From: Antedon mediterranea
Lineage: Eukaryota; Animalia; Echinodermata
Assembly (NCBI RefSeq): GCF_964355755.1
Contig: NC_092678.1
Location: 264,422-328,421, forward strand
DNA: 64,000 nucleotides
Reading direction: 5' to 3'
A program made the position numbers and the translations under genes. Of the stretch, positions 1 to 49,645 are shown piece after piece (position 1 is the stretch's first letter; every line of letters begins with the position of its first letter). The notes under the pieces are model-generated. The model was given only the letters and a program-made list of their open reading frames with translations, was not told the DNA's origin and did not search any database.

Positions 1-862
1 TCATGTTCGTGTTTCTTCAAATGCTTTTTGAAATTACTACTATCATTAAATCGTTTACCACAAAACTCACAACCGTAAGGTTTCTCTCCCGTGTGTAGCC
101 TCAAATGCACCGTTAAATGACCCCTTTGTTTAAACTTTTTGTCACAATATTCGCAATTAAACGGCTCCTCTCCCGTGTGAAGCATCACATGCGCTTTTAA
201 ATTCCCTTTTTGATTAAACGTCTTGTAACAATATTTGCATGTAAATGGGCTTTCACCGGTATGTACCAGTAAATGTCTTTTTAATGCGCTACCGTCATGA
301 AATAACTTGCTGCAATGTTCACATTCGAATATCTTATCTATTTCATGTTTAGCGATGTGAATGACCAATTCATCTTGACCGTCAAATGTACGTCCGCATT
401 GTTCACATTGAACATCTTTAATGTTTGAATGTGCTTCTTCTAAATGTTTGTTAAGGTCGCTTAAATCAAACTTTTCTTTACAATGTTCACATTTAAATTT
501 CTTAAGTATTTCTGAATCTTCATTTCTTCTTGCTTCAAACACGTTACTTTCGCTTCTTTCATCTTCAGTTGGTAAATAAACCCATTTGTCTTCATCTGTA
601 TTTTCTTCTTCACAATACTCAACTGTAAATAAAAATAGTTTCAATTGCCTTATTATTTCATTTGGTAGCATTTATTCTAAATTTGAATGGTAAAACGTTA
701 AAAAAAACTAAAAGATAAATGGAAAAGTAAAATATTCTCAATCGAAAACGCCAACATTAAAATTTATTAATAAAAATCACCTTTACCTATTTCAACCTTT
801 ACATCAGAGATGACTTCTGAGTTGAATTCCATTGCCATTTTATTTTCATTTATATCTGCCAT
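1..862 (-). CDS. C2H2 zinc-finger gene A (3' end runs off the window)
   Basis: Exon 787..862 (ATG at 862, MADINENK...SDVKVEI) splices GT-AG in phase 1 to exon 1..622 (VEYCEEENTDEDKWVYLP...CEHCKEKFDLSDLNKH...HTGESPF). It is a close paralog of the 1676..2935 ORF. Confidence 0.9.
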
Positions 863-1675
863 TTTAGATCTTTCATTCACAATATCTGAAAAAAAATTAA
901 GCACAAACTATTAATAATGTTTTAATACTGGTATTTTTAAATTTTTTGCTTTTTTAATATATTAGAATAAATTTATTTAATATAGGCATTCTAATTTATT
1001 TAATACATTTTGGAAAATAATGAAATCGGTCAAATGGACTTACAGCCAAACTGTTCAGGGTCGAATCGACTTGGTTAGAATTAAAACCTTAAAAAACACC
1101 GATCTTCAAACGTCTATTGCACCAAAAGTATTGTACCTAGCCTCTAGCCTATCATGTTGTCAAGCCATCAAACCCCCACAAACCATAACATGCCTAAATT
1201 CAGTTTACTTTATAATTAAGACATAAAATCACATATCTGATAGTAGTTGATATTTCTTTATTATTACCGAATATAGCATATAATCAGAGAGAAATTAAAA
1301 TTATTGAATTTAGGCTTAGGCCTACCTCATCTCCCCCCGCCGCCGTGAGCAGCTCAAAATATCTCGTCGTCGAAGGAAAAAGCTTTCTCGTTACGCATCA
1401 TTGATTTCCTGCATATGGCACAACAAAGGAGCAAAAATACACAGTCCAATAACACGAAACATTGGCAAAAATAAAAAGCAATACAATTATGTATACATCT
1501 TCATTTAATGTTAATGCAAACATATATAAATAAACAGAGAGATTAATAATCAACCTTTGAAATCTGCTAATATCATTTATTCTCCTTTTTATCATTACTA
1601 TTTTACGGACAGCTAAGCCTAAGTACAATGTTGATATCTATAATATTCATCAAGTTTAGTAATGCATTCAAAAAG

Positions 1676-3173
1676 TTAAATTTTTTTATTAATTTCTTCA
1701 TGTGTTTTTAATAAATGTCGCTTTAAATGACCATTATGACTAAACATTTTACCACAATGTTCACATTCATGTACTGTTTCGCCTGATGCGTGTATTTTCA
1801 TATGACGTTGATAAGTACTATTATAGCTAAACTTTTTTCCGCAATGTTCACATTCAAATGGTTGATCTTCTAAATGGTTTTTCATGTGATTTCGATAATT
1901 ACCACAGCCGGCAAATTTCTTTCCACAATGTTCACATTCATACGGAGTTTCTCCGCTGTGAATTCTCGCATGGATTCGCAAGTGCCCACGGTGATTAAAT
2001 TTCTTTCCGCAAATTTCGCATACAAATTGTGTTTCTCCTGTATGGATTTTCATATGAATTTTAAGAGATCTACTATAACTAAATGTTTTCCCACAGACGT
2101 CACATTCATGTGTCTCTCCTGAATGTAAATGCATATGCTGTTTTAAATTGCCGCCATCATTAAATGTTTTTCCGCAATGTTCACATTCGTACGGTTTTTC
2201 CCCGGTGTGAGTTCTCAGATGCGTTTTCAAATGTCCACGATGAGTAAATTTCTTTCTACAAATTTCGCATTCAAATTGCGTTTCTCCCGTGTGTATTTTC
2301 ATATGAGTTTTAAGATTGCCACGATAATTAAAAGGCTTGCCGCAAACTTCGCATTCGTATGTCTCTCCCAAGTGCAAATTCACATGTTTTTTTAAACTAC
2401 CTGTGTCATTAAACTTCTTCCCACAATGTTCACAGCTATAAGGCTTTTCTCCAGTGTGAATTCTTAAATGTGTTTTTAAAATTCTACTTTGTTTGAATAT
2501 TTTTCCACAATGTTTACACTCAAATTGTTTTTCTTTGATGGAAACATTTTGGTTGCTATTTTTACAAAATTCCTCTTCAAAGCCACTATCTGTGTGTGTC
2601 TTCATGTGCATCTGTATACCAGTTTGTTCCTCAAATGATGCCTCACAAAGTGCACATTCAAAAACCTCTTTTCTTAAATGTGTCTTAATGTGAATGACCA
2701 ATTCATCTTGACTGTCAAGTATACGTCCACATTGTTCACATTGAAAATCTTTAATGTTTGAATGTGTTTCTAAGTGTTTGTTAAAGTCACTTAAGTCAAA
2801 CTTTTCTCCGCAATGTTCACATTTATGTTTCTGAAGTATTTCTTGATTTGACCTTTCTTCTTCTAACATGTTATCTTCGCTACATTCAGCTTCGTACTCA
2901 GGTGGCACATAGATCCATTTTCCTTCATCTTTCATTATTTCTTCGTCAGAACATTCAACTGCAAATAAAATTCGTATTTTGTTATAAATTAAAACATGGC
3001 TAGATATGGAGCTTTTGTCTACTGAAATTTTATTTTTTAAGGAAAGTAATCTACACTTTTTAATTTGTCAAATTACTGTACACTTGATAACTTTATAACT
3101 AACCAATTTCCACCTTTACATCTGGTGGTTGTTCAACCTCCAATTGTGCTACTGCTGTCTTTTTATTGGCCAT
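1676..3173 (-). CDS. C2H2 zinc-finger gene B, 13 fingers, ~450 aa
   Basis: ORF 1676..2935 has TGEKPY-type linkers. It extends through an acceptor at 2959/2960 to exon 3104..3173 (MANKKTAVAQLEVEQPPDVKVEI), phase 1. Confidence 0.92.
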
Positions 3174-3384
3174 TGTCGACAAAAGATCTAAAAATAAAAT
3201 ATAAATAAAAACATAATTTTATAATATAATACTTAATATTAAAACACAATTACTGAGTACACGTACATAATATATTGACCCGAAAAAAGCGCACAATTAA
3301 TAGTTATACTAATAGTACAGTAATTAGCTAGGCCTAGGCTGGTTTAGTAGGCTAGGCTGGCGCTAACCTACAACTGGGTATCTG

Positions 3385-4183
3385 TGTTATGCGCGATTTG
3401 AACGATTTGCGCAATTTGAAATTGCGCAAAAAAAATCCTTGCGCAATTTGAATTGAAACATGTGTTTCAAATTGCGCAAGCAACGTATTAAATTGCGCAA
3501 GTAATCTGCAAATTGCGCAAGGTTTTTCGACAGATTGTGAAATCATGCACACCCATATTTTTATAGTAATTTCTAAGAATGATTCAAAATTAAAGATAAA
3601 TATCGCATTTCCTTATTTTAGTAGTGCAAATATTGTTATAAGTTAGCATACCGTCGAAGAACCGACGAAGGAAAACGAAGCGGTGGTGTTCCACCAGGCG
3701 GGCGCGGCGCGGGCGGCCGGCTATACTACTCTAGCCTAGCTAGGGTCTGGACTATTGATACTGACTAGGTTACATGGCCTAGCTTAAACTAATATTAAAA
3801 ACTTAAAAAGTGAGTATTAAACATTATCTTCATTGAAATGGTCTTATTTATATAATAAAATACTAAATTTTAAACTCCTCTGCCTAGGCCTAGCCTAGCC
3901 ATGTATGGGAAAATTTACACTTCGTTTTCAAATTGCGCAAAGGTGTCATATTGCGCAAGAACTATCTTGCGCAATTTACAAATTGTGCAGCGCAATTTAA
4001 AATTGCGCAAAGATTTTCTTGCGCAATTTGAAATTGCGCAAGTTGATTGCGCAATTTGAAATTGCGCAAAAAAATCTTTGCGCAATTTAAAATTGCGCAA
4101 GAATTCTTTGCGCAATTTCAAATTGCGCAAGGATTTTTTTGCGCAATTTCAAATTGCGCAAATCGTTCAAATCGCGCATAACA
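3385..4183. mobile_element. Non-autonomous TIR DNA transposon (Ginger-like termini) with ~20 TTGCGCAA palindromes
   Basis: Terminal inverted repeats of ~65 bp (TGTTATGCGCGATTTGAACG... / ...CGTTCAAATCGCGCATAACA). The 4-bp direct repeat TCTG flanks both ends (3381-3384, 4184-4187). No transposase ORF. TGT..ACA ends with a 4-bp TSD fit Ginger (family call is inference). Confidence 0.85.
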
Positions 4184-4993
4184 TCTGGTTTCTAGGCCTC
4201 CTCCTAGCCCGACTTTGTGGTGCCAGATTAAACTTAAAGTCTAAAAAAAATACTTAGCCACCACCAGCAAATGTGGCACTGTCAGTGTCAGTGTAAAACA
4301 AATTACTCATCATACTCATACTATAATATTAATATAGGCCTAGGCCTAGTCATACTGGCAGGCCTGACATTGACAAGAGGAGGAGATTACCATCAAATTC
4401 AAAGAAAACAAACACAATGCATCACTGACTGGTAGTAGGATGATCGTCAGAATTATTGACGAAAATATAACATATAAATATGTCAAAGGGAAGGACATTT
4501 AAAGTATTTTGTAAGGCTAGGCCAACAGCGGAGTGCTAGGCCGCTAGTCCTAGTTTTCCAAACTCTTAAGCCCGCGACCACTGCGTCGTCGCCGCGTCGG
4601 TCGTCAGCTTTGCTGTTGTTGCGCATCAATGATTTTTAACAAATATGGCAAACCAAAAGAGCAATAATACAGTAGAAATTTGTATAATGTAATAACAAAA
4701 AAAATCAAAAAAGATATAAATTTCACTCATTTTATTTGTCACATGTCTTACAAGGTCATCTTTATATAAAAAATAATTATTCCACTTTTAGAAATTTGAT
4801 TATAGTAAGTACAGTAGAAGATTATCATGTAAAGAAATTATAATTGACATTCATTAGACAAGTTCTTTGTATTGCGATAAAAGAAGACATTGAATCATTT
4901 ACTATGCAGTGATTTTTTTCTTGAATCATATCTTTTTGAAGATGCTAATCTTATTAATAATAATTAGTCAATAACAAAGATAGGCATCTACAT

Positions 4994-7396
4994 TTACTGC
5001 TGCTGTACTGGGTTGAAGGAGAGAGCGTGTATCTTCAAATGTGCTTTTAAAGAGCCACTTTGGTTAAATTTCTTGCCACAAATGTCACATTGAAAAGGAG
5101 TGTCCCCTGTGTGTGTCCTGATGTGTATCTTCAAACTACCATTTTGGGTAAATTTCTTTCCACAATAATTACATTCAAACGGCATTTCACCGGTATGAAT
5201 TCTCAAATGAACTTTAAGAACCTTTAAGTCTTTAAACCGCTTTTTGCAAACCTTACATTCATAGGGTTTCTCTCCTGTGTGTATTCTTAAATGCGTTTTT
5301 ATAGAGTTGTTATGGTTGAATTGTTTACCACAATACTCGCAAATGTACGGCGTCTCTCCCGTATGTATTCTCACATGCCGCTTTAATGCGCTACTATGTG
5401 TAAATTTCTTTTTGCAGTATTCACATTCGTACGGCTTCTCTCCGGTATGGATTCGTAGATGTGTCCTCCAGTTGCCACGATCCCGAAATTCATTTCCGCA
5501 ATACGCACAATTGTACGGTTTTTCTCCAGTGTGTATCATTATGTGTTTCTTTAGAGTATATTTATCATTGAATTTCTTTCCACAATATTCACATTCAAAA
5601 GGCATCTCCCCTGTGTGTATAATCAAATGTGTTTTTAAATTACCACTTTGTCTAAATTTCTTGCCACAATGTTCACATTGATACGGTCTTTCTCCCGTGT
5701 GTATTCTCAAGTGCGTTTTTAACGTACCATTGTGGTTAAATTTTTTACCACAATGTTCGCATTGATATGGCATTTCTCCTGTGTGTGCCATTAAATGTGT
5801 TTTTAAATTTTCAGAATTGATGAATTTCTTTCCGCAATGTTTACATACATATGGCGTCTCACCGGTGTGTTTTCTCAAATGTCTTTTTAAACTAGAATTT
5901 TCATTAAATTTTTTCCCGCAATGTTCACATGCATACGGTCGATTTCCAGAATGAATTCGTATATGTACCTTCCAGGTACTTTTTCTTTTAAACGTCTTTT
6001 CACACTGTTCACATTTGAATGGTCGTTCTCCTGCGTGTGTTTTCAAGTGTAATTTTAAAGACCCACTACTGCTAAATTTGTCATCACAATATTTACATTC
6101 ATATGGAGTCTCTCCAGTATGCAGTTGCAAATGTTTTTTCATTATTTCGTTATTTTTACAAATTTTTCCACAAAATTCGCATTCGTTTTGCTCTTTCTTT
6201 TGTTGTATTCTCAAATGAGTTATTAAATTAAGATTTTCGCTTAATTTCTGTTCTTTTTTATGAATTATTAAGTGTTTGAATAGTGTTTCAATATCATTAC
6301 AATTATGTCCACAATGTTCACATTCATACTGTGTCTGTTTGTCTGCGTGTCCTGTAAAATCATCTTCCAAAGCAATAATGTCATTGTCATTTGAATGTGT
6401 TATTAAATGTTCTTTTAAATCATCATCTTCTTTGAAATGCAGCTGACAATGTTCACATTCATACTGTGTCTGTTTGTCTGCGTGTCCTGTAAAATCATCT
6501 TGCATAGTACTAATGTTATTAACATGATTATCATTTAAATGCGTCTTTAAATGTTCTTTTAAATCATCACCTTCTTTGAAATCAAGTTCACAATGTGCAC
6601 ATTTGTAAATAATTTCCTCAGCATGTTTCATCAAATGTTCTTTCAAAGAGCCGTTCCGATTGAATGTTTTCCCGCAATGTTCACACACGTAAGGCGTTTG
6701 TCCGGTATGTATTCTTAAATGTCGTTTCAAAGCACTGCTATGTGTAAATTTTTTCTCACAATGTTCACATTCGTACGGTTTTTCTCCGGTATGTATTCTT
6801 AGATGAGTTGCCCAGTTGCCACGATCCCTAAATGCTTTCCCACAATATTTGCATTCATATGGTCTTTCTGCCGTGTGTATTCGTAAATGCACTTTAAAAC
6901 TGTTACGATCGCTGAATTTCTTTCCGCAGTGTTCACATTCGTATGGTGTCTCTCCGGTGTGTATTCTTAAATGTCTTTTTAAAGCTCCAGTCTGCCTAAA
7001 TCTTTTGCCGCAATGTTCACATTCGTATGGCCTTTCTCCTGTATGTGTTCTTAGATGGATTTTTAAGCCGTTACTTTGGCTAAATTTCTTCTGACAATGT
7101 TCACATTCATGCTGTCTAATTGAATGCACTTTGAGATGTTCCTTCAATTTGATTGCGACATCAAATTTCTTCTGACAATGTTCACATTCATGTTTGTGTG
7201 TTTTCACATGCATCGTTAAATCATTTATGTCATTAAATATCGTCCCACATTGTTCACATTGAAACTTCTCAAGTTCTGTATGCATTTCCAAATGTAGTTT
7301 GAAAGAATCCAACTCAAAATTCTCATCACAATGTTCACATTTATATCGTCGTGTTACTTCGTCTGATTCGTCGTTTATGCATTTCGTCTTGTCCAT
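4994..7396 (-). CDS. C2H2 zinc-finger gene C, ~26 fingers, 800 aa
   Basis: Single long ORF with canonical CxxC-x12-HxxxH repeats and HTGE(K/R/T)PY linkers. Two finger arrays are separated by acidic degenerate fingers. Confidence 0.93.
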   Translation of the reverse strand: MDKTKCINDESDEVTRRYKCEHCDENFELDSFKLHLEMHTELEKFQCEQCGTIFNDINDLTMHVKTHKHECEHCQKKFDVAIKLKEHLKVHSIRQHECEHCQKKFSQSNGLKIHLRTHTGERPYECEHCGKRFRQTGALKRHLRIHTGETPYECEHCGKKFSDRNSFKVHLRIHTAERPYECKYCGKAFRDRGNWATHLRIHTGEKPYECEHCEKKFTHSSALKRHLRIHTGQTPYVCEHCGKTFNRNGSLKEHLMKHAEEIIYKCAHCELDFKEGDDLKEHLKTHLNDNHVNNISTMQDDFTGHADKQTQYECEHCQLHFKEDDDLKEHLITHSNDNDIIALEDDFTGHADKQTQYECEHCGHNCNDIETLFKHLIIHKKEQKLSENLNLITHLRIQQKKEQNECEFCGKICKNNEIMKKHLQLHTGETPYECKYCDDKFSSSGSLKLHLKTHAGERPFKCEQCEKTFKRKSTWKVHIRIHSGNRPYACEHCGKKFNENSSLKRHLRKHTGETPYVCKHCGKKFINSENLKTHLMAHTGEMPYQCEHCGKKFNHNGTLKTHLRIHTGERPYQCEHCGKKFRQSGNLKTHLIIHTGEMPFECEYCGKKFNDKYTLKKHIMIHTGEKPYNCAYCGNEFRDRGNWRTHLRIHTGEKPYECEYCKKKFTHSSALKRHVRIHTGETPYICEYCGKQFNHNNSIKTHLRIHTGEKPYECKVCKKRFKDLKVLKVHLRIHTGEMPFECNYCGKKFTQNGSLKIHIRTHTGDTPFQCDICGKKFNQSGSLKAHLKIHALSFNPVQQQ

Positions 7397-8137
7397 CGTT
7401 GTAAAATGTTGTATCCCTCTATCAAAAGTTTGAGAAGAAAAAAATACAATGAAATATTAATTAAAATAATGCAAAGACAGTCTATGCATTGAGGGATAAA
7501 ATTTTAGAATTATATATATAGAATTTTTTCTCTATGGTCCATGGTCATCATATAGGCCAATAGACTGGCTACTAGGTGTGAAACCAAGCTAAAACAGGCT
7601 TGTTGTTGGTTCACACACACTCTAGCTGGACAAAACAAAGCAGTGTAAATCAAATCTATAGGCCCTGAAGAAAAACATAATACTCTGTTCAGAAGAAACT
7701 AACGCATACTAGTACATTCATCAAAATTATTCAACTTACCTTAAACTAGGCCTAACTAGGGCCTGAACTAATTTTAATATTTCTTAGGAAAACAAAAACT
7801 AAGCATCCTCCATCGTCGATTCCTAATTCGTAATTAAAAAGAGAGCTTGTAATATAGAGGGCAGCAGACCGAAAAGTGGAAATCACACATTTGATTGTTG
7901 ATGTATTTTTGGATTTTCCAAGTTCTCTCTCCTCTTACATTTCTTTTAGACATAACATATGACAAATACAAATATACATTAAATATAGAAAACAAGTTTA
8001 TTGTACATACAATATTTATACAAAGTATTTAATTTGATGAGTGGTAAGCCATACAGAACTTCATAACATTTTTTGTTAAAAGGTTAAAAATTAAATATAT
8101 TAAAATTATTCATTTGCAAACTATGTTTTATCTGACA

Positions 8138-9698
8138 TCATTGCCAATTATTAAGCTCCATTTGATGGATTAAATCATCTTCCTTGTGCATTTTTAAATG
8201 TCTTTTTAAACTAGAAATTTCACTGAGTTTTTTGCCACAATGTTCACATTCATGTGATGGTCGATTATTTGAGTGAATTCTTAAATGCACTTTCCAAGTG
8301 CCCCTTCTTTTAAATTTCTTTCCACATTCTTCGCATTCAAATGGCCGTTCTCCCGTGTGTGTTCTTAAGTGTAATTTTAATGATCCACTTTGGATAAACT
8401 TTTTCTTGCAATATTCACATTTATATGGTTTTATCCCAGTATGAATTCTCAAATGCGTTTTAAAAGTAGTTCCTTGTCTAAATTGCTTCCCACAATGCTC
8501 ACACTTGTACGGTTTTTCTCCAGTGTGAATACGCATGTGACCTTTTCTAGAACTGCTATCTTTAAACTTCTTCCCACAATGTTCACATTCATACGGTGCT
8601 TCCCCTGTATGTGTTCGTAAGTGCCGTTTCAATGATCCACTTTGCCTGAACTTTTTCTCACAAAGTTCACATTTGAAAGGCGTCTCTCCTGAATGCGTTG
8701 ATAAATGTTTTATCAATTCACACTTGTGAATAAATCTTCTTCCACAAGCATCACATTCATGCGGTCTATCGCCTGTGTGTATTTTCACATGCGACTTTAA
8801 ATGACCACGTTCACGAAATCGTTTTCCACATTGCTCGCATTCATACGGCTTTTCTCCAGTGTGAATCCTAACATGTTTCGTCAGACCGCCATTTTCTCTG
8901 AATGCCTTCCCACAATGCTCACACTTGTACGGTTTTTCTCCCGTATGTATCCGCACATGAATATTTTTAGAACTAATAGTTTTGAATTTCTTTTCACAAT
9001 GTTCACATTCATAAGACGACTCCATCGTGTGTATTCTCAAGTGTTTTTTAAAAGCTCCAAATTGACTGAATATTTTCTGACAATGTTCGCATTCATAATG
9101 TTTATCGTCAGGTATTTCGCTCTTTTTTAAATGAGTTGCAAAGTGTAATTCCAAATGTTTTTCATCATCAAACATTATTTGACAATATTCACATTGATTA
9201 CATGAATGTGTCTTAATAACATGCTCATCTAAGTCGTCCTCATTCTCAAATATCTGTCCACAATGTTCACATTGAATTTGTTCAACTTCTGCATGTTTTT
9301 TGAAATGTGTTTTTAATTCATGCAATTCAAACTTTTCTCCACAGTGTTCACATTTATATTTGATTTGATTTCCATAGTTTAAAATTATTTCTCTATTTTC
9401 TTCTGATTGCAAATGCTCATTTTCTTGGCTTTCACTATAATTTATCTCGTCTTCTGTCGATGAACTGTTTCCCAATATTTCTCCAAAGTTTTCTAAAATA
9501 GAAATTATAACAACTACGGTATATAATTTTAAAAAGAATCAAAATGAAATTAAAATTATTTACATATTTCAAGTTTTATTTATAACATTTAATTAATTAA
9601 TTAATAGGCCTAATTATTTACTTCTTGAAAATATTTATTAAAAACTCACCTATTTTAACTTCTGGAATCATTATAAAGTCATTTTCATATTCTGCCAT
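8138..9698 (-). CDS. C2H2 zinc-finger gene D, 14 fingers, ~467 aa
   Basis: Exon 9650..9698 (MAEYENDFIMIPEVKI) joins exon 8138..9492, GT-AG, phase 1, in frame with ORF 8138..9475. A probable non-coding first exon has its donor at ~9998. Confidence 0.92.
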
Positions 9699-10724
9699 TC
9701 CTAAGAATAGTTTGCAATCAATATTGAAACTGCAAAAGAACAAACAAAAACAAAGTATTATTCCAGGGACGAACCGACCTCAAAATGTCTAAGTCCAGGA
9801 CAAAACGAAGGATCCGCCTGTTCAGTCAACACATTAGGCCATGGACAAGCTAAAAAAAGGAGGCCGCACTCAGTGCGTTCTCAAGATTTAAACATTATTT
9901 TTATAATGTAATAATTATAATAAAGCAATTATAAAAACGCGAATTTTATATTTACGATTGTTATTTTTGTATACAAGTCAAATGAACAAATCTCTTACCA
10001 TGTAGGGCCTAGCTAGGCCAGGCCTTTTTACTTGAATATTTTTTGCTGAAAAAATTATTACAGAGGGCGGCAAACAAGTTTCAGCAACAACAGTAAACAA
10101 AGATCAACTCGGTACCAAATGTCATGCTTTGCTTTTATTAGAACTATATAGCTGTATACTATTACTACATTATTAAGAAATCCAATACAAGAACAATGAT
10201 ATTTCAAACTGTTTAAGTTGGCGATACAAAGCTGCCGTTATCCAATCAAAAGCTTAATTCAACCCACAATGCAGTTAAATAAAAGATATGGTATGCATAA
10301 TACCTGAACAAAATAAACTACATCGTATCTATCCTACATGCACTACCCTTTAACTGCTATCAGTACCCTTCAACTGCTATCTTATTTTAACATTGATTAC
10401 ACTACTAATGACATAGGCCAGTCAATGTATAGAATCTGTCAACAGATATCTACATCATTATCATTAATAGTAGTACTTTTTTGTTCTGTGACTGAATACA
10501 AATAATCAGGATTCATATCAATGATTATTATTACAAATTGGGAGAAGATTGTGTAGATCTGCACGTGTAGTTACAGTATGTGTCATAGTTAGTTGATATA
10601 CCATAGGCCAGGCAGGTGTAGTGACGTATTATAGTTCAGACTGGAGTAGTGACGAACTTTAGACCAGCCTGGATGTCTCAGAGCCTTGGTTTGTTATAGT
10701 TGAATAAGGAACTTCATTGTTGTG

Positions 10725-13700
10725 TCACAAAAGATCTACCCAGTTAGGCAGTTTACAGCAATAATCCATGTGGTCCATCAGATTCTTATCTGTAGAGGAC
10801 AAAAGCGCCCAGGCGTAGATTTTCACACATTAAACATTCCATGAAATACACAAACCTTTTTAATGGAAAGATCATGTCATTATATTATAAAAGATGTTTA
10901 CATGGTATCGTGTATGTGTGGTCTCTGTGAGCATCCCCTTGTTCTGACGATGTTTCACTGTGTTTACGTTTACGTGATGGTGGCCCTATATACACCATTT
11001 CATCCTCCTCTCTTGAATTTGGGCAGTACATACTCCGCCGTGATAGCTAAAACAAACAATACATAATAAATGCTTGGTTTCTACTAGAGATGCAGCGCTA
11101 AGACATAAACGCAAGAGATGCAGCGCTAAGACATAAACACAAGAGATGCAGCGCTAAGACGTAAACACAAGAGATGCAGCGCTAAGACGTAAACACAAGA
11201 GATGCAGCGCTAAGACATAAACGCAAGAGATGCAGCGCTAAAACATAAACGCAAGAGATGCAGCGCTAAGACATAAACGCAAGAGATGCAGCGCTAAGAC
11301 ATAAACACAAGAGATGCAGCGCTAAGACATAAACACAAGAGATGCAGCGCTAAGACGTAAACACAAGAGATGCAGCGCTAAGACATAAACGCAAGAGATG
11401 CAGCGCTAAGACATAAACACAAGAGATGCAGCGCTAAGACATAAACGCAAGAGATGCAGCGCTAAGACGTAAACACTAGAGATGCAGCGCTAAGACATAA
11501 ACGCAAGAGATGCAGCGCTAAGACATAAACGCAAGAGATGCAGCGCTAAGACGTAAACGCAAGAGATGCAGCGCTAAGACATAAACGCAAGAGATGCAGC
11601 GCTAAGACATAAACACAAGAGATGCAGCGCTAAGACATAAACACTAGAGATGCAGCGCTAAGACATAAACGCAAGAGATGCAGCGCTAAGACATAAACGC
11701 AAGAGATGCAGCGCTAAGACGTAAACGCAAGAGATGCAGCGCTAAGACATAAACGCAAGAGATGCAGCGCTAAGACATAAACGCAAGAGATGCAGCGCTA
11801 AGACATAAACGCAATGCAAGTCATTTGACCAACTACAAGCGATGGATTATTCAAACTCGCTTGTGTTGGTTTACGTCCTTGTGTTGCCTCTCTAGTGGGA
11901 ACTAAGCTTAAGCAAGTTATTAATGAAAGTTAAGTAAGAGGAGATAAATTGCTTAATTAAGTAGAGAACTTACCAAAGACAATCGAATACATTGCTTTAA
12001 CCTGCATTTCTGCCTAATCCTGTTTGGTCCGCCAAATTTCTTCATATCCTGAAAAAAACATTCATAATAATAATTAAAAAAAATGAAATTAGCAAAAAAT
12101 ATTTGTGCAAACATATACATATAAAGTGACATGGGGTTAATTTGCCACGCATTTTATTATACTGAAACAATCTATTTACCATGCAGTAGTCACATTCCCC
12201 GCAATCGTCTTGACGATAGCAAGCATCACAGTCTCCGCATCTCCGACTTGATCGCTGAAAAAAAATACAAACAAACTTTAAGTTTATGTTCTAAAACCAC
12301 ACAGTTATTAGCTAAAGCTAATTACTGACCACTTTGTGTAATTTATTGCAATGTCTATGGTATCTCTGTACACTTAAAAGTAGCATTAATCTAAATCCCA
12401 ACTTTATATCAATGGCTACCAGATGTCTCTATGTATACCGTTACCTGAACCAGTACTAAAGTGTGTGACTGTATTATAACCACAGTATGAGTTTTGACTG
12501 CTTAAACAAAAGAGCCTATGTTAAGTGTATTATTCTAGAGTGTTTGTTAGACTTATATACTGTACTGACTCCCAAGTATAAACCTAGAAATATAATAATA
12601 CTTTAAATGGATAATGCTTAGGAGATGCATGTATACAGGAGGACCACTTCAGTACACTACAAAGAAATTAGCAGACTAATACCCCAGGGTGGGCTTATAC
12701 ATGAATCAGAAATGGTAATCACAAATCAATGAATAACAAAATTGCAGGTAATGAGCTTACCACAAGTGGTAACTTAACATTATTGGCGTATTCATTACTA
12801 GAACCTTCTGTACCAGATTTCTTCTCTTCGTACGCTTTTAAAAGTTTATCACAAAAACTAGTATCCACTTTATCATCTGCACGTTTCTTTTTTTTCTTTG
12901 ATTTCTTTGATTTCTTCTTTCTATATTTAAATCTCTTCCCACAATGTCCTCCGCCTGTATGTGTTCGTAAGTGCCGTTTCAATGATCCACCTTGCCTGAA
13001 CTTTTTCTCACAAAGTTCACATTTGAAAGGCGTCTCTCCTGAATGCATTGATAAATGTTTTACCAATTCACACTTGTGAATAAATCTTCTTCCACAAGCA
13101 TCACATTCATGTGGTCTATCGCCTGTTTGTATTTTCGACTTTAAATGATCACAAACATGAACATTTTTAGAACTAATAGTCTTGAATTTCTTTCCACAAT
13201 GTTCGGATTCATAATATTTATCCTCATGTATTTCATTCTTTTTTAAATGAGTTGCAAAATGTAATTCCAAATGTTTTTCATCATCAAAAATTAGTTGACA
13301 ATAATCACATTGATTACATGAATGTGTCTTAATAACATGCTCATCTAAGTCGTCCTCATTCACAAATATCTGGCCACAATGTTCACATTGAACTTCTGTG
13401 TGTATATTTAAATGTGTTTTTAAATCATGCAACACAAACTTTTCTCCACAGTGTTCACATTTAAATTTTATTAGATTTTCATTGTTTAAAATGATTTCTC
13501 TTTTTTCTTCTGATTGCAAATGCTCATTTTTTTGTCTTTCACTATAATTTATCTTGTCTTCTTTTCCAAAGTTTTCTAAAATAGAAATAATAACAAATAT
13601 ATAATTTTAAAAAGAATTAAATATTTACATATTTCAAGTTTTATAATTAGGGGCCTATAAAATATTTAATAAATATTTATAAGTATTTATTAAAAACTCA

Positions 13701-13750
13701 CCTATTTTAACTTCTGGAATCATTGTACAGTCGTTTTCATATTCTGCCAT
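10725..13750 (-). CDS. Chimeric C2H2-ZNF / CXXC-domain gene (ZNF-D 5' part fused to CXXC1 middle exons), ~407 aa
   Basis: join(13702..13750, 12761..13575, 12180..12254, 11974..12048, 10902..11046, 10725..10789), all GT-AG and open. It encodes 5 intact C2H2 fingers, a Lys-rich linker, the full CXXC (CGDCDACYRQDDCGECDYCMDMKKFGGPNRIRQKCRLKQC) and ends LMDHMDYCCKLPNWVDLL*. If the last intron is not spliced it stops at 10885 (391 aa). Minus-strand AATAAA at 10134..10139. Confidence 0.75.
11072..11910. mobile_element. MITE (GCTTGGTTYCYACTAG...CTAGTGGGAACYAAGC family) with internal 28-bp minisatellite x ~26
   Basis: Inverted termini at ~11072 and ~11891-11908. Unit AGAGATGCAGCGCTAAGACATAAACGCA spans 11086..11813. 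Related copies lie at ~18975-19110, 19443-19563, 24836-25350 and 32470-32600. Confidence 0.75.
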
Positions 13751-14838
13751 TCCTAAGAATAGTTTCTAAAGTGTAATCAATATACTACACAAGAACAAAA
13801 AAAAACAAAGTAATGACATGTTATAACAACATCCAAGGACGAACCGACCCCAAAATATCTAAGTCTAGGACCAAACGAAGGATCCGCCTGTTCAGTCAAT
13901 CAGGCCATGGACAAGCTAAAAAAAAGAAGACCACATTCAGTGCGTTCTCAGGATTTAAACATTATTTTTATAATAGGATATAATAAAGAAATTATAAAAA
14001 CGCGAATTTTATATTTTCGACTATTATTGTTTTATACAATTACAAGTCAAAGGAAAAAATCTCTTACCGTAGTAGGCCGGCCACCATGAATTAACTAGGC
14101 TACTAGGAGGAGGCTAGCCTGGAAAAATGATTAGAGAGGGCGGCAAACAAGTTTTTCTTATAATCATAAAAAAAAAGCTCAGCAAATAAAAACTAGTAAC
14201 AAATGTCATGCTTTGTTTTTATTAGAACTACATAGCTGCATACTACAGTATTAGGAAATTCAATACAAGAACAATGATATTTCAAACTGTTTTAGTTGGC
14301 GATACAAAGCTACATTTACATCTCCCTGATTCAACCCACAAGATATGGCAGGGATATAACCTGAACAAAATAAACTGCATATCGTATCAGGTCTATCCTG
14401 CATCCTTCACATGCTACTGACTTGAGTAGATCATTTGTCATGGACACAATATTCTATTTCAATCAACATGTGTTTATCTTACTTTTAACACTTATTACTC
14501 TACTGTAATTAATTATTTTGTTAAACTTTGTAACAAATTTTTAAAACAATTTTTATTTACTTATAAAAAAGCTTCAGAAATGATCTAGATTTGTACAAAG
14601 ATTATTTGATACTTAGTTGTATACTTAGTTGACAATAAGAACATACTTGGAGAACAATTACAGTTTCTCCTTTCTATAAAATTCATTAAAATTAAAAGAA
14701 AATATTGACATTACATAAAATGACCTAAAGAAGAAGTCATGACTGGCAACTTATAAGACTTTGAAACACAGTTAACGGCAAACAACTTAGGGTCAATTGA
14801 GGTTTCAAACCAACCATCTACAATATAAGTTACAAATA

Positions 14839-20800: not shown

Positions 20801-23800
20801 TAGCACAGTATTAACTATTTACTAGTGTACCAACATCATGGTAGCACAGTATTAACTATTTACTAGTGTACCAACATCATGGTAGCACAGTATTAACTTT
20901 TTACTAGTGTACCAACATCATGGTAGCACAGTATTAACTATTTACTAGTGTACCAACATCATGGTAGCACAGTATTAACTTTTTACTATTGTACCAACAT
21001 CATGGTAGCACAGTATTAACTATTTACAAGTCTTTTCTAATACAAACCAATAAACATTTTATATACAGATAATTTACAAAATGCTGTTCAAAGATTGAAA
21101 TAATGCATAAAACTATGTCAGACAGGATCCTTGTCAAAACAGACTGGCTTCTGTCAAACTTTATTACAGACTGGCTTCTGTCAAAACTCTATTAAAGACT
21201 GGCTTCTGTCAAACTTTATTACAGACTGGCTTCTGTCAAAACTTTATTAAAGACTGGTTTCTGTCAAACTTTATTACAGACTGGCTTCTGTCAAAACTTT
21301 ATTAAAGACTGGTTTCTGTCAAAATCTATTAGACTGGCTTCTGTCAAACCATTATTACAGACTAGCTACTGTCAAAACTCTATTACAGACTAGCTTCTGT
21401 CAAACTCAATTACAGACAGGATTCTGTCAAACTATTAATACAGACTGGCTTCTTTACAATTTTTCTGCAAATATTAAGCAGATTCTTTAACTCATATAAC
21501 AAAAAGAATAATCATTGGTTTAATATGTTAAAAATGTCTTGTACAATGTATAGAATAACCTTTATCCAATCGTACTGATTGCTTAGCAGGATCATGAAAA
21601 TGAATCCAGGTTGAATGACATAAGCCAGTCTTAATTAAACAATGTATAGAATAACCTTTATCCAATAGTAATGATTGCTTAGCAGGATCATGAAAATGAA
21701 TCCAGGTTGAATGACATAAGCCAGTCTTAATTAAACAATGTATAGAATAACCTTTATCCAATAGTAATGATTGCTTAGCAGGATCATGAAAATGAATCCA
21801 GGTTGAATGACATAAGCCAGTCTTAATTAAACAATGTATAGAATAACCTTTATCCAATAGTAATGATTGCTTAGCAGGATCATGAAAATGAATCCAGGTT
21901 GAATGACATAAGCCAGTCTTAATTAAACAATGTATAGAATAACCTTTATCCAATAGTAATTATTGCTTAGCAGGATCATGAAAATGAATCCAGGTTGAAT
22001 GACATAAGCCAGTCTTAATTAAACAATGTATAGAATAACCTTTATCCAATAGTAATGATTGCTTAGCAGGATCATGAAAATGAATCCAGGTTGAATGACA
22101 TAAGCCAGTCTTAATTAAACAATGTATAGAATAACCTTTATCCAATCGTAATGATTGCTTAGCAGGATCATGAAAATGAATCCAGGTTGAATGACATAAG
22201 CCAGTCTTAATTAAACAATGTATAGAATAACCTTTATCCAATAGTAATGATTGCTTAGCAGGATCATGAAAATGAATCCAGGTTGAATGACATAAGCCAG
22301 TCTTAATTAAACAATGTATAGAATAACCTTTATACAATCGTAATGATTGCTTAGCAGGATCATGAGAATGAATCCAGGTTGAATGACATAAGCCAGTCTT
22401 AATTAAACAATGTATAGAATAACCTTTATCCAATAGTAATGATTGCTTAGCAGGATCATGAAAATGAATCCAGGTTGAATGACATAAGCCAGTCTTAATT
22501 AAACAATGTATAGAATAACCTTTATCCAATCGTAATGATTGCTTAGCAGGATCATGAGAATGAATCCAGGTTGAATGACATAAGCCAGTCTTAATTAAAC
22601 AATGTATAGAATAACCTTTATCCAATCGTAATGATTGCTTAGCAGGATCATGAAAATGAATCCAGGTTGAATGACATAAGCCAGTCTTAATTAAACAATG
22701 TATAGAATAACCTTTATCCAATCGTAATGATTGCTTAGCAGGATCATGAAAATGAATCCAGGTTGAATGACATAAGCCAGTCTTACTTTAACATTGATTA
22801 CACTACTAATGACATAAGCCAGTCTTACTTTAACATTGATTACACTACTAATGACATAAGCCAGTCTTAATTAAACAATGTATAGAATAACCTTTATCCA
22901 ATCGTAATGATTGCTTAGCAGGATCATGAAAATGAATCCAGGTTGAATGACATAAGCCAGTCTTACTTTAACATTGATTACACTACTAATGACATAAGCC
23001 AGTCTTAATTAAACAATGTATAGAATCTGTCAACAGATATTCTACATCATTATTATTAGTAGTACTTTTGTTCTGTGACTGAATACAAATAATCAGGATT
23101 CATATCAATGATTATTATTACAAATTTGGAGAAGATTGTGTAGATCTGCACGTATAGTTATGTGTCATAGTTAGTTGATGTACCATAGGCCAGGCTGCAG
23201 TAGTGATATATTATAGTTCAGGCTGGTGTGGTGATGTACTATCGTCTAGGCTGGCGCATACCATAGTTCAGGCTGGTGTAGTGATGTACCATAGGCCAGG
23301 CTGGTGTAGTGATGTACCATAGTTCAGGCTGGTGTAGCGATGTAGCATAGTTCAGGCTGGTGTAGTGATGTACCATAGGCCAGGCTGGTGTAGTGATGTA
23401 CCATAGTTCAGGCTGGTGTAGTGATGTACCATAGTTCAGGCTGGTGTAGTGATGTACCATAGTTCAGGCTGGTGTAGTGATGTACCATAGGCCAGGCTGG
23501 TGTAGTGATGTACCATAGTTCAGGCTGTTGTAGTGATGTACCATAGTTCAGGCTGGTGTAGTGATGTACCATAGGTCAGGCTGGTGTAGTGATGTACTAT
23601 AGTTCAGCCTGGAGTAGTGACGTACCATAGATCAGGCTTGAGTGATGATGCACCATGAGTCAGGGATATGCTTTCTGAGATAACAATGTTCACAAATTGT
23701 AACTTTGCTGGAGACCAATATCACTGCTATTAGAACAAACTGGTCCCACTAATTCTTACTAACTTCCAAATGTTCTTTAGTACTCAACCAACTTTTGACA

Positions 23801-26800
23801 ACAGATCAGAAGGTCACCAGGTCACCAGATCCTGAGAAAGCTCTCCTCTATCCACTGTAGCACCAGTGCACCAGATCCTGAGAAAGCTCTCCTCTATCCA
23901 CTGTAGCACCAGTGCACCAGATCCTGAGAAAGCTCTCCTCTATCCACTGTAGCACCAGTGCACCAGATCCTGAGAAAGCTCTCCATTGTCCAACGTAGCG
24001 TGTAGCATTTTCCACATTAATGACGCTGTTCAAGACAATCTACTCATGCAGATGTATTCTTCTTAATGCCAGACAAGCACAGATTTCAGAATTCTTACTA
24101 GCATACTCTGCAACAACCAGGTCCAAATAACCATCACTTCTCTCTTCTCTCCAAGTAGTACTCACTCAGATATTTCAGGAATCAACGTCTCAAAGCCTTG
24201 GTGTGTCTTACTGTAGTTGAGGAAGGAACTGGTAGTTGTTGTGTCATGATAGATCCACCCAGTTAGGCAGTTTACGGCAGTAATCCATGTGGTCCATCAG
24301 CCACCAGAATCTTGTCTGTAGAGGACAAAAGCGCACAGGTGAACAGGCGTAGATCTTCATGCTGGGGAACTGGACAAATATACTTAGGGGAAGGCATAGT
24401 TTAACACTTACAGTATATTCAAACCTGATTAATACATTGTCTAAGAATTGCGTGATAAATGTTTCCACAACACAAATATTACATATTACATTTGGCCTTA
24501 ATTAATTTACATTTTTTAACATACAACGCTACAGTGTGCAAGTCTGCACTTTAAACTAATAACATTCACACATTAAACATTACATGAAATACACAAACCT
24601 TTTAAATGGAAATATGTGATAATATTAAAAAAGTATTGTGAAAAGAAATTGGTTCTTACCCTTGGTATCATGTACGTGTGATCTCTGTGAGCATCCCCTT
24701 GTTCTGACGATGTCTCACTGTGTTTACGTTTACGCGATGGTGGCCCTATATACACCATTTCATCCTCTTCTCCTGAATTTGGGTAGTACATGCTCCGCCG
24801 TGATAGCTAAAATAAATAAAACAATACAAAATAAATGCTTGGTTTCCACTAGAGACACAGCGCAGGAGTGTAACTGCAGCGCAGGGACGCAAGGACAGCG
24901 CAGGGATGTAAGCACAGCAGCGCAGGGACATAAGCACAGCAGCGCAGGGACGTAAGCACATCAGCGCAGGGACGTAAGCACAGCAGCGCAGGGACATAAG
25001 CACAGCAGCGCAGGGACGTAAGCACATCAGCGCAGGGACATAAGCACAGCAGCGCAGGGACATAAGCACAGCGCAGGGACGTAAGCACAGCAGGGCAGGG
25101 ACATAAGCACAGCAGCGCAGGGATGTAAGCACAGCAGCGCAGGGATGTAAGCACAGCAGCGCAGGGACGTAAGCACAGCAGCGCAGGGACGCAAGCACAG
25201 CAGCGCAGGGATGTAAGCACAGCGTAGGGATGTAAGCACAGCGTAAGAAAGTAACCGCAACACAAACAATGGACTATGCAAATTGTTGGTAAACTTGCTT
25301 ATGTTGGGTTTACGTCTTTATGTTGCCTCTCTAGTGGGAACTAAGCTTAAGCAAGTTATTAATGAAAGTTAAGTAAGAGGAGAGAAATTGCTTAATTGAG
25401 TAGAGAACTTACCAAAGACAATCGAATACATTGCTTTAACCTGCACTTCTGCCTAATCCTGTTTGGTCCGCCAAATTTCTTCATATCCTGAAAAAACATC
25501 CCATAATAACGATTAAAAAATATGAAATTAGCAAGAAATATTTTAGAGTATAATACTCAATTAAAAGGGTAGCCATCATGTGATAGGGTATTGCTAAACT
25601 GTGCAAACACAATGGACATTCTAACACCTTGAGACATCAAATCATCTGTAGGGTTAATTTTAGCGCATTTTATTATACTGAAACAATCTACTTACCATGC
25701 AGTAGTCACATTCCCCGCAATCGTCTTGACGATAGCAAGCATCACAGTCTCCGCATCTCCGATTTGATCGCTGAAAAAAAGATAAAACAAATTTTAAGTT
25801 TATGTCCTAAAGCCACACAGTAAAGTAGCAGAGTTTATTAGCTAAGTAGAGTGTGTGACTGTATTAAGAAGTATGCGTTTTGACTGCATAAAAAAAATAG
25901 ACAGTAGTAAATGTTTTATCTATTTGTATCATGTCTGTTTCTATGTGTGTGTGCCCAAATATGGTAGTGATATGTCATCATGTCTGTTTGTTTGTACTTA
26001 ATATATACTGTACTGACTTACGTATCAAGTTCTGTGTGTGTGTGCCCAAATATGGTAGTGATATGATGTCATCATGTCCATATATGGGCACATCACATTT
26101 TGTTGTCACATAGAGTTTGATAGTGTAGACAGAGCTTAAGGCTAGCTACAATAATAAATGGATAATGCTTAAGAGATGATTGTATACAGGAGGACCAAAC
26201 ATGAGAACATTACAAAGAAATTAGCAGACTAATACCCCAGGGTGGGCTTATACATGGATCAGTACGTTAATCATAAATGAATAAAAAAAAGGTTGTAATT
26301 ACAGGTAGTGAGCTTACCACAAGTGGTAACTTAACATTATTTGCGTATTCATCACTAGAACCTTCTGTACCAGATTTCTTCTCTTCGTACGCTTTTAAAA
26401 GTTTATCACAAAAACTAGTATCCACTTTATCATCTGCAGGTTTCATTTTCTTTGATGTTTTCTTCTTTCTATCTTTGTCTTTTGAGTGTTTCTTTTTCTT
26501 TTTGTCCTTGTGTTTTTTCTTGTGTTTATCTTTCACCTTGTTTCTATCTCGGTCTCTCGTTCTTGATTTTTTCTTCGCTTTCATTTTTTTTTCAATTTTG
26601 CGGTATATTACATTATTGAAAGGATCTTTTGCTATTTAAAAAACAAACCAGAAAATATGAATAAATATTACATGAATAAAAATTCTTTCTACATCCCATT
26701 AAAAAAAATTTGTACCAAACTAGGTTAATATCAAGTGTAAACCTAATGTTAACAGAATTGTTAATTTAATTAAGTAAATATGTTGTTACATAGTACTGTA

Positions 26801-29800: not shown

Positions 29801-31402
29801 ATAAATTGCTATTAAATGCTTTGATGATAAAGAGGATGTATCACCCTACACAGACGACGGATGATAAAGAGGATGTATCACCCTGCACAGACGACGGATG
29901 ATAAAGAGGATGTATCACCCTACACAGACGACGGATGATAAAGAGGATGTATCACCCTACACAGACAACGGATGATAAAGAGGATGTATCACCCTACACA
30001 GACGACGGATGATAAAGAGGATGTATCACCCTACACAGACGACGGATGATAAAGAGGATGTATCACCCTACACAGACGACGGAAAACATATCGGTAAAGA
30101 GGATGTATCACCCTACACAGACGACGGAAAACATATCGGTAAATGCAGAATAGGAAGTGCAATGCTCTGATGCTGCTGTCAACTTATGGGTTTGCACATG
30201 TGCAGTGCGTTGTCAGTTTATGATCTGCACATGTTGTCAGTTTTATGATTTGCACATGTGCAGTGCGTTGTCAGTTTATGATTTGCACATGTGCAGTATG
30301 CTAGCAAGAAACAAAGGACACTGAGAATGTGATGTGAACTTTTGTCTGCACATGAGCACAAATATGACGTTGGTATTTTTTTTAAAGTGCTGATACATAC
30401 TGAAAAGTAGTGTAATGATGTTTGGTTTGAATATGCTTTAAAATAAAACTTTTAAAATGAATAGGCTTTGAACTAGCTAGTATGTAGGACAGTAATGGTA
30501 TGATGATACAGTAGCAGAAAATGGTTGAATTTTTACTTACATCACTATCTGATGACATATAGTCAAGAGACTGAAAAAATCAACATTTTAAATAAAAATA
30601 TTTGTATAGGTTTATAATTGTAATAGCAGTTTTAGGCCTAAAAACATTTCTGAGCAATTCCTCCAGCTACTGTAGGCTCAACCAGTTCCTACTTATTTAG
30701 GCCTAAAATATTATTTATTTATTAATATAAAATATTTTGTCATTATTTATTAATTAATGACAAAATGGAGAGACACACCGTACCGGTGACAGCGTTTTGT
30801 TTAATGCTTTTGTCTCTCCTCGGCTTCGTGTCTTGTACAGTACTTCATATATATATATATTTCTATGTTTTGTAATTATTATTTCATGTTTATTGCCGAA
30901 ATGAATAAAATAAAAATAAAATAAAACTTTGTATTTGCAAAGACATGTTTACAAAACAACTCAATACACAGGGAACAGAGAAGATATTAATAATATTTTA
31001 AAGCAACAACAAATCTATAAACAAAAGTCAAAATAACTTTAAAAGTTCATAAAATATACATCAAATAATCATTTAATTTATTTGAATTATTATAGTATAG
31101 TCAAACAATTATAATTGATCAATAAACAAAGCCAGGCATTTAGTTCGTTAATTGTAAATAAAGTCCTAGGCCCCTAAAGTGTGGACTACTAAATTGTGAC
31201 ACGACAAAAATCCAGGTCAGTCCAGTTGGAATTAGCGTTACTTTATCGCGCAGACTCATAAATTTCCGACGAAGCGGGCCTAGAAAAACAAGACAATTGA
31301 CGCTGTTCATATCTCAATATTAAACAAATAAAATATTATTTTATTACCACCAAAACATAATCAATCACTTACAGATTTATTTGCTGAATCACTATCACTC
31401 AT
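14839..31402 (-). CDS. CXXC1: CXXC-type zinc finger protein 1 (CFP1, SET1/COMPASS subunit), 16 coding exons, ~736 aa
   Basis: Exons 31373..31402, 30541..30570, 28604..28785, 26963..27063, 26318..26631, 25696..25770, 25413..25487, 24660..24806, 18669..18782, 18223..18386, 17499..17706, 16927..17031, 16525..16574, 16284..16377, 15479..15634, 14839..15204. All are GT-AG and phase-compatible. Motifs: PHD (LYCVC...FMICCDYCNEWYHGDC), CXXC (DMKKFGGPNRIRQKC), QCNGPGC...SKYCSDECG, RIFEFLPQRIKQWQESPCIAEE, YCKRLKVLCPEH, WEKLRRAEIDL, KLDDLFEQERNIRTAM. Confidence 0.96.
15804..16225 (+). mobile_element. tRNA-headed SINE with 46-bp head tandemly repeated x6
   Basis: A-box-like AGTGGCCGAACAG in each 46-bp unit (15804..16079) and a single B-box GGTTCGAGGC. 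The 3' part matches the copy at 36235..36503. Confidence 0.75.
17720..17935 (+). mobile_element. Possible LINE (L2/CR1 group) 3' tail remnant
   Basis: AAGCGCTCTGA...ATAGCGCTATATAAAT followed by (TAGA)n resembles L2-type 3' stem-loop tails. Confidence 0.3.
20740..21025. repeat. ~41-bp tandem repeat x ~7
   Basis: TAGTGTACCAACATCATGGTAGCACAGTATTAACTATTTAC repeated. Confidence 0.9.
21140..21455. repeat. 27-28-bp tandem repeat x ~11
   Basis: ACAGACTGGCTTCTGTCAAACTTTATT variants. Confidence 0.9.
21543..23025. repeat. 96-bp tandem repeat x ~14
   Basis: Near-identical units ACAATGTATAGAATAACCTTTATCC...GACATAAGCCAGTCTTAATTAA. These produce the repetitive ORFs at 21528..22721. Confidence 0.95.
23180..23640. 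repeat. 28-bp tandem repeat x ~16
   Basis: GATGTACCATAGTTCAGGCTGGTGTAGT variants. Confidence 0.92.
23823..23985. repeat. 46-bp tandem repeat x ~3.5
   Basis: CACCAGATCCTGAGAAAGCTCTCCTCTATCCACTGTAGCACCAGTG. Confidence 0.9.
24244..24315 (-). CDS. CXXC1: Probable alternative terminal exon of CXXC1 (short PHD+CXXC isoform, ~341 aa)
   Basis: Strong acceptor GCTTTTGTCCTCTACAG in phase 0 with exon 24660..24806. Encodes TRFWWLMDHMDYCRKLPNWVDLS*. It is retained in frame in the duplicate at 10725..10789. Confidence 0.6.
   Translation of the reverse strand, partial: TRFWWLMDHMDYCRKLPNWVDLS
24836..25350. mobile_element. MITE (same insertion as 11072..11910) with internal 22-bp minisatellite x ~17
   Basis: Termini GCTTGGTTTCCACTAG / CTAGTGGGAACTAAGC. 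Unit GCACAGCAGCGCAGGGACRTAA. Confidence 0.75.
29823..30140. repeat. 37-bp tandem repeat x ~8
   Basis: GATGATAAAGAGGATGTATCACCCTACACAGACGACG repeated without unique spacers. Confidence 0.92.
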
Positions 31403-33686: not shown

Positions 33687-34065
33687 TCTTGTGAACATTT
33701 AATGAGGATAACATATTGACCTTTGACCTAAAATACATGGAATTGTTAATCTAAGAACATTGAGCAAGCTTGAACTTTACATAATAAAAGAAATAAATAA
33801 AAGCATTTATGAAAAATGATTTTAATTGTGTTTTCATAATAAGTATTGTACATTAAACAACTAATAACAATTTCTAGAAAATTAAACGGTTACATCAAAC
33901 AGAACTATAGAGGGCAGTACAGTTCATTAGAAAAACAGGGTGGTATAACGTACCACTCATTTCAGTAGCAATAAATTACAAAATTAGTAATTTTTCTCAT
34001 TTTATCTGGTAAACAAATAAAGTACATTTCTCCCATTTCTTAAATTATTAAACTAAAGATCTTGC

Positions 34066-49645
<15,580 letters not shown>

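Follow-up and report, generated by a model that had tools for sequence, protein, structure and literature searches.

A transcribed C2H2 zinc-finger/CXXC1 fusion gene in the feather star Antedon mediterranea retains an intact type-1 CXXC domain

The window analysed here, 64,000 nt of Antedon mediterranea DNA, contains a transcribed gene in which the 5' half of a C2H2 zinc-finger gene, ZNF D, is joined in frame to CXXC1 exons 5-8. Judged from its sequence, the fusion likely specifies a nuclear protein of 391 aa that is predicted to recognise unmethylated CpG without recruiting SET1/COMPASS, and by its domain content it is neither a CFP1 orthologue nor a typical C2H2 factor. The fusion is well supported as a gene and moderately supported as a selected one. 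Signs of selection, which an initial annotation of the locus had proposed, are found on the reading frame and on the CXXC1-derived half; the codons of the ZNF half are close to neutral.

The minus strand of the window carries, in order, an intact CXXC1 (31402-14839), the fusion gene (13750 to about 10140), ZNF D (9698-8138) and further C2H2 genes. ZNF D, the first parent, encodes 467 aa with 14 C2H2-pattern fingers. The second parent, CXXC1/CFP1, retains PHD, CXXC and CpG_bind_C. Its model minus exon 30570-30541 is letter-for-letter RefSeq XP_071960277.1 of Antedon mediterranea, and a Pfam domain search places the PHD at residues 59-103 and CpG_bind_C at 399-633 of the protein. The stretch 30541-30570 is a 30-nt in-frame candidate CXXC1 exon, missing from both RefSeq isoforms examined; an Anneissia protein has similar residues at its position. 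The further minus-strand C2H2 genes form a cluster at 1-9700 with the same N-terminal finger type, and CpG observed/expected is 0.8-1.1 in this cluster versus 0.1-0.6 over most of the CXXC1 body. A multi-exon minus-strand gene at 34050-39200, with a long CAG repeat near 37670-37725, presumably resembles RBM5/RBM10, going by its motifs.

Self-comparison of the window relates ZNF D and its upstream DNA to copies at 13183-14388 and 12946-13152, and CXXC1 22961-26476 to a copy at 10380-12928. The fusion point, at 12921-12928 on the minus strand, is an 8-nt microhomology between ZNF D 8556-8563 and CXXC1 26469-26476 that the two parents read in one and the same frame, with one later substitution. 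Near 10385 the aligned copy of CXXC1 intron 8 abuts a copy of the CXXC1 3' end, and the chimera has no counterpart of CXXC1 exons 9-16. The chimera's presumed promoter and 5' UTR lie at 13760-14390 (minus strand), a copy of the CXXC1 3' end/ZNF D upstream region (10330-9705) in which 43 of 418 ungapped columns, about 10%, differ from the ZNF D upstream region. In non-coding sequence the copies differ from their parents by 8.6%, with many indels in addition. Parts of two neighbours are joined at one breakpoint with intact parents on either side, the arrangement of a tandem-duplication chimera, and the fusion likely formed in this way. About 18 kb, from CXXC1 exon 5 to ZNF D finger 10, would have been duplicated in tandem first, and a stretch of about 8.5 kb with CXXC1 exons 9-16 would then have dropped out of the second copy, before a related species split off.

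Five of ten sequencing runs, none of the ten recorded as RNA, were aligned (X3, X5, X7, X9 and X10), and the small-share runs X6 and X8 were left out; X1-X4 are possibly the source of the window and are not treated as independent. X3 and X7 are DNA runs. X5 is Antedon mediterranea from another sample and study. It is not recorded as RNA and is taken as RNA because it shows GT-AG joints that X3 and X7 lack, namely three listed joints with CT..AC ends: 12047>12179 (cut +1), 12254>12761 and 15204>15479. Spliced contigs, the lack of which would have counted against the initial proposal, are present in X5. Contig 17 of X5 (12852-12983, one other letter) shows transcription across the breakpoint, extending 55 letters to one side and 69 to the other, and a DNA contig (contig 12) also bridges 12921-12928. 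The deletions specific to the chimera are spanned by contig 19 of X5, and for exon 5 the run has both a chimera-type contig (contig 9) and a CXXC1-type one. The X5 contig with the CXXC splices shows chimera letters at 12796 and 12007, to be read with the merging of near-identical paralogues in Logan contigs, where the CXXC splices are not assignable per molecule and no contig covers the whole mRNA. Compared with the window, the X5 allele has four replacement differences and one silent difference. X5 contigs also carry CXXC1 intron 8 sequence at 24613-24628, which hints at CXXC1 transcripts that retain the intron or end early and would likewise be without the C-terminal half.

The initial annotation proposed six exons on the minus strand (13750-13702, 13575-12761, 12254-12180, 12048-11974, 11046-10902 and 10789-10725). 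GT-AG ends throughout and an open 407-aa frame agree with this model, but the sixth exon is not confirmed, the X5 contig being unspliced there, and the RNA-supported product is 391 aa from five coding exons rather than 407 aa from six. Coding exon 1 (13702-13750) is ZNF D-derived and has its ATG at 13750. Its proposed joint to exon 2, 13702>13575, fits X5 contig 21, which starts with 16 letters from outside the exon, though it does not appear among the listed joints. Coding exon 2 (12761-13575), tiled by X5 RNA contigs 21, 19, 18, 17 and 16, encodes from 5' to 3' an acidic N-terminus, three N-terminal fingers, a wrecked middle and two canonical C2H2 fingers, and continues past the fusion point into a Lys-rich linker from CXXC1 exon 5. 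The next joint, 12761>12254, appears in X5 as a listed CT..AC joint, as predicted. Coding exon 3 (12180-12254) holds the first half of the CXXC domain with six Cys, with an N>S change before the first, and coding exon 4 (11974-12048) the second half, with KFGG, RQ, the last two Cys and one silent change. The splice 11974>11046 is inferred from two mismatches that fit the end of exon 4; its intron holds a 730-nt tandem repeat. An alternative donor lies 15 nt downstream before the CXXC domain, at 26303-26317 in CXXC1 (RefSeq isoform X1) and 12746-12760 in the chimera, and adds five residues; the related species uses a GC donor here, and the chimera likewise has GC.

Terminal exon 5 (coding part 10885-11046) is a copy of CXXC1 exon 8 that reads through a decayed donor, AGG/GTAAGA having become CAT/GTAAAC, to a TAA at 10887-10885. 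Contig 3 of X5 (770 nt, with six other letters and an insertion of 3 nt) covers 10951 to 10185 without a splice and crosses the 10385 junction. The proposed joint 10902>10789 is absent from the listed joints, and since the observed transcript keeps this last intron the product terminates at 10885. A minor form spliced 10902>10789 may exist, as contigs drop rare variants. The 3' UTR (10139-10884) comprises a copy of CXXC1 intron 8, the junction near 10385 and a copy of the CXXC1 3' end with AATAAA. That AATAAA, at 10139, is the only one on the minus strand in 9900-10900 and lies about 590 nt beyond the previously proposed stop, so that the poly(A) signal reported earlier for the model is not confirmed; it is the paralogue of AATAAA at 14223, and the end of contig 3 at 10185 fits its use. 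The proposed sixth exon (10725-10789) is itself a copy of CXXC1 intron 8. The corresponding stretch of CXXC1 intron 8, 24244-24315, is open for 24 codons after an AG; in the chimera copy the frame is restored (-2 and -7 nt) with four silent and two replacement differences, and a 38-nt match to this stretch persists in DNA of the related species. No spliced use of 24244-24315 or 10725-10789 is seen in the runs, and a conserved alternative terminal exon was rejected for want of a spliced contig.

The CXXC domain encoded by exons 3-4 is intact, with eight Cys in two clusters, KFGG and RQ. The parental CXXC passes PF02008 and aligns to the human CFP1 CXXC (PDB 3QMB); PMC3685328 gives eight Cys, a KFGG linker and a KQ/RQ motif as features of type-1 CXXC domains, the class that binds unmethylated CpG. 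As first described, neither the PHD nor the C-terminal CpG_bind_C region is present, the breakpoint being downstream of the PHD exons, and the SET1-interacting region and the C-terminal RbBP5-binding zinc finger (PF12269) are likewise absent. CFP1 binds COMPASS via a central SID and the C-terminal zinc finger, according to PMC7145517. On the ZNF side, five of the 14 C2H2-pattern fingers of ZNF D survive with all zinc ligands, and fingers 4-7 are deleted or wrecked. PF00096 passes its cut-off in the chimera, but only two of the 11 canonical tandem fingers of ZNF D are left intact, a tandem pair rather than an array of at least three canonical linked fingers under constraint. This pair shows three replacements and one silent change (omega 0.96). 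The proposal of a lineage-restricted reader free of COMPASS therefore survives in part: the gene is transcribed and spliced, its type-1 CXXC is intact and the SET1 and RbBP5 regions are gone. The coupling of ZNF sequence specificity to CpG reading is not supported, given a near-neutral ZNF half and the loss of most canonical fingers.

Constraint is most evident in the reading frame. The indels relative to ZNF D measure 24, 9, 84, 137+7 (net 144), 6 and 15 nt and keep the frame, as had been noted, and further indels of 6 and 3 nt in the CXXC1-derived linker are also net in frame. The 84-nt deletion of a finger unit is in frame by mechanism and was set aside, leaving five to seven non-repeat-mediated events, all multiples of three, versus 20 of 66 non-coding indels (P 0.0026 to 0.0002; the counts come from the aligner and are crude). 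Contigs of the related species share the parental state at the 24-, 15-, 9-, 6- and 3-nt events, which places these on the chimera lineage. Had the gene drifted neutrally, it would have stayed free of stops with a probability of 0.075. The X5 allele carries one more in-frame 3-nt insertion, in the tail.

At the codon level the two halves of the gene differ. Codon comparison of the CXXC exons with CXXC1 returns just the N>S and the one silent change, and exon 11046-10902 has six silent and three replacement changes, both as first reported. The CXXC1-derived part as a whole (138 codons) has five replacements and eight silent changes, a pairwise omega of 0.17; 13.8 replacements are expected from half of the 8.6% non-coding divergence versus five observed (P 0.006). 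Outgroups place all five replacements on the chimera lineage. Silent changes at 12785 and 10954 fall on the parent branch and those at 12007 and 11008 on the chimera branch; 10975, a homoplastic CpG site, is probably on the chimera branch as well, and 11032, 10921 and 10915 are assigned by mismatch accounting, the related species' contig having exactly four unlisted mismatches. Only two of the eight silent changes thus map to the parental branch; silent changes falling there had been named as an outcome that would weigh against selection, and this is not what is seen. The best assignment on the chimera branch gives 5N/6S, an omega of about 0.25 and P of about 0.025 on small counts; table-listed sites only give 3N/3S (P 0.14). 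Silent divergence is uneven, with two changes in the linker and CXXC versus six in exon 5 (Fisher P 0.049), and site 10981 groups the paralogues by species; on these two observations gene conversion is a possible contributor to CXXC conservation, and it may account for part of the likeness of the CXXC exons. The ZNF part (220 codons) has 33 replacements and 11 silent changes (Fisher P 0.021 versus the CXXC1 part). Its omega ranges from 0.62 to 0.96 across four sub-regions, the three N-terminal fingers being lowest at 0.62, and on these counts the ZNF half appears close to neutral.

Runs of one study, including the spliced run X10, supply the related species. Exon 5, the ZNF 5' region and segments of CXXC1 introns each occur in two versions in this species. 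One exon 5 version is that of its 5091-nt CXXC1 transcript, and the other has the chimera's letter at 11024; the second ZNF version has the chimera's two-letter change at 13235-13236. These shared chimera-derived changes indicate that the duplicate likely predates the split of the two species, as far as contig letters can tell. Alleles are an unlikely explanation for the two versions given the shared derived letters, and contig depth, weak evidence in itself, agrees. In the second ZNF version 420 nt of ZNF D are left out in frame, a length of five finger units, which appears to remove one of the two canonical fingers, and the second exon 5 has four private replacements and one silent change and looks relaxed, as under neutral drift. 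X10 has CXXC1-type and ZNF D-type contigs and leaves the second exon 5 version and the chimera 3' UTR uncovered, a gap not counted as evidence. The fusion junction is absent from the related-species contig rows listed.

The reading that fits these observations best, held at somewhat better than an even chance, is that the gene, driven by a borrowed promoter, makes a CpG reader free of COMPASS which buffers CFP1 or competes with it. The frame would be kept open by selection so that translation reaches the CXXC module, with ZNF D mainly contributing promoter and start codon along with an N-terminus under loose constraint, and the Lys-rich linker would act in nuclear import. The predicted protein would sit on unmethylated CpG-rich promoters in the expression pattern of ZNF D, with a putative dilution or buffering of full-length CFP1 at those promoters. 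A cited review describes mouse CFP1 as able to set H3K4me3 without its CXXC domain, so competition effects might be mild. A bolder form, for which the chances are distinctly poor, is a natural CFP1 antagonist born at the breakpoint, kept across speciation and under ZNF control, in which the N-terminal fingers would tether it to partners from the neighbouring ZNF family, so that it would reshape H3K4me3 at unmethylated promoters in an invertebrate.

A transcribed but decaying duplicate could give much the same picture, its protein dispensable and its CXXC conserved by conversion and small numbers. The promoter and splice sites are inherited, the ZNF half is near neutral with four fingers lost or wrecked, the exon 5 donor has decayed, the X5 allele brings many replacement polymorphisms, and the neutral-looking exon 5 of the related species and the uneven silent divergence point the same way. 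However, conversion cannot account for the five to seven frame-preserving indels that the chimera alone carries (P no higher than 0.003), and exon 5, with six silent differences and hence not recently converted, has yet just three replacements; a decaying duplicate is accordingly unlikely, if still a serious contender. Rather improbable is a dual reader in which the C2H2 fingers add DNA-sequence or partner specificity and target a subset of unmethylated CpG. Five fingers do keep all zinc ligands, two canonical ones stand in tandem directly before the linker, their three replacements miss helix positions -1, 2, 3 and 6, and omega within the ZNF part is lowest over the three N-terminal fingers, but the canonical pair evolves at an omega of 0.96, the related species' second version is apparently without one of its members through the 420-nt skip, and two fingers alone confer little specificity.

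A role for the locus as RNA or regulatory spacer (shared 3' UTR, read-through, CXXC1/ZNF D insulation), with the open frame only avoiding transcript decay, would suit the 3' UTR copied from the CXXC1 3' end and the intron-8-derived 10725-10781, which is conserved (four silent, two replacement) though unspliced as an exon; it leaves the replacement deficit in the CXXC1-derived codons unaccounted for and is quite improbable. The window is rich in repeats, as an assembly artefact or mis-joined haplotype pair would call for, yet contigs span the fusion both in a DNA run and in RNA from another sample, an RNA contig likewise crosses the 10385 junction, and divergence between the copies amounts to 8.6% with many indels on top, which largely refutes this origin and leaves it barely any probability.

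A COMPASS-free reader of this kind would be a new chromatin-reader architecture caught at birth, for which both parental genes, the breakpoint, a second allele and a related species can all be inspected. Should the chimera prove functional, it offers a natural test, in an invertebrate, of the CFP1 CXXC role apart from COMPASS, and of whether a fragment of an essential gene is tolerated or serves as a competitor; should one species retain it while the other loses it to decay, the fate of a chimera is seen in mid-course. Protein searches returned no fusion protein (334 matches from 608 candidates for exon 2, 2 from 10 for exon 5 and 1 from 69 for the N-terminal fingers), and since they also missed ZNF D itself this blank is uninformative. 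A literature search, with subscription papers and supplements outside its scope, found no paper on a ZNF/CXXC1 fusion gene.

Among known proteins, CFP1/CXXC1 is the direct parent of the chimera's linker, CXXC domain and next exon, with the type-1 motifs intact in both, whereas the N-terminus and promoter of the chimera come from a C2H2 gene and its PHD, SET1 and RbBP5 regions are gone. IDAX/CXXC4, FBXL19 and short KDM2A/KDM2B also have a CXXC that rearrangement or alternative starts have parted from its catalytic partner, as described in PMC3685328; those are vertebrate and TET- or KDM2-derived, whereas the chimera is young, CFP1-derived and fitted with C2H2 fingers of a neighbour gene. C2H2-pattern fingers and a CXXC occur in one chain in 16 of the best 150 of 1752 CXXC matches; all 16 pass Pfam zf-CXXC and none a Pfam C2H2 cut-off, so the precedent is of pattern only. 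Among them, a scorpion protein (XP_067144144.1), oomycete INO80-like proteins and a brittle star protein (XP_072043951.1) have both finger types but in unrelated architectures (chromo, SNF2, FHA, RING). The brittle star protein, of 1239 aa, has five zf-CXXC stretches, RING fingers and RAG1 importin-binding matches. The mechanism of origin is ordinary and already well described: in Drosophila yakuba, tandem-duplication chimeras join a 5' gene part to a neighbour part at the breakpoint and shuffle regulatory ends (PMC5460883). The D. yakuba chimeras are polymorphic and very young, whereas the feather-star chimera has about 9% non-coding divergence and a later deletion, and is seemingly common to two species.
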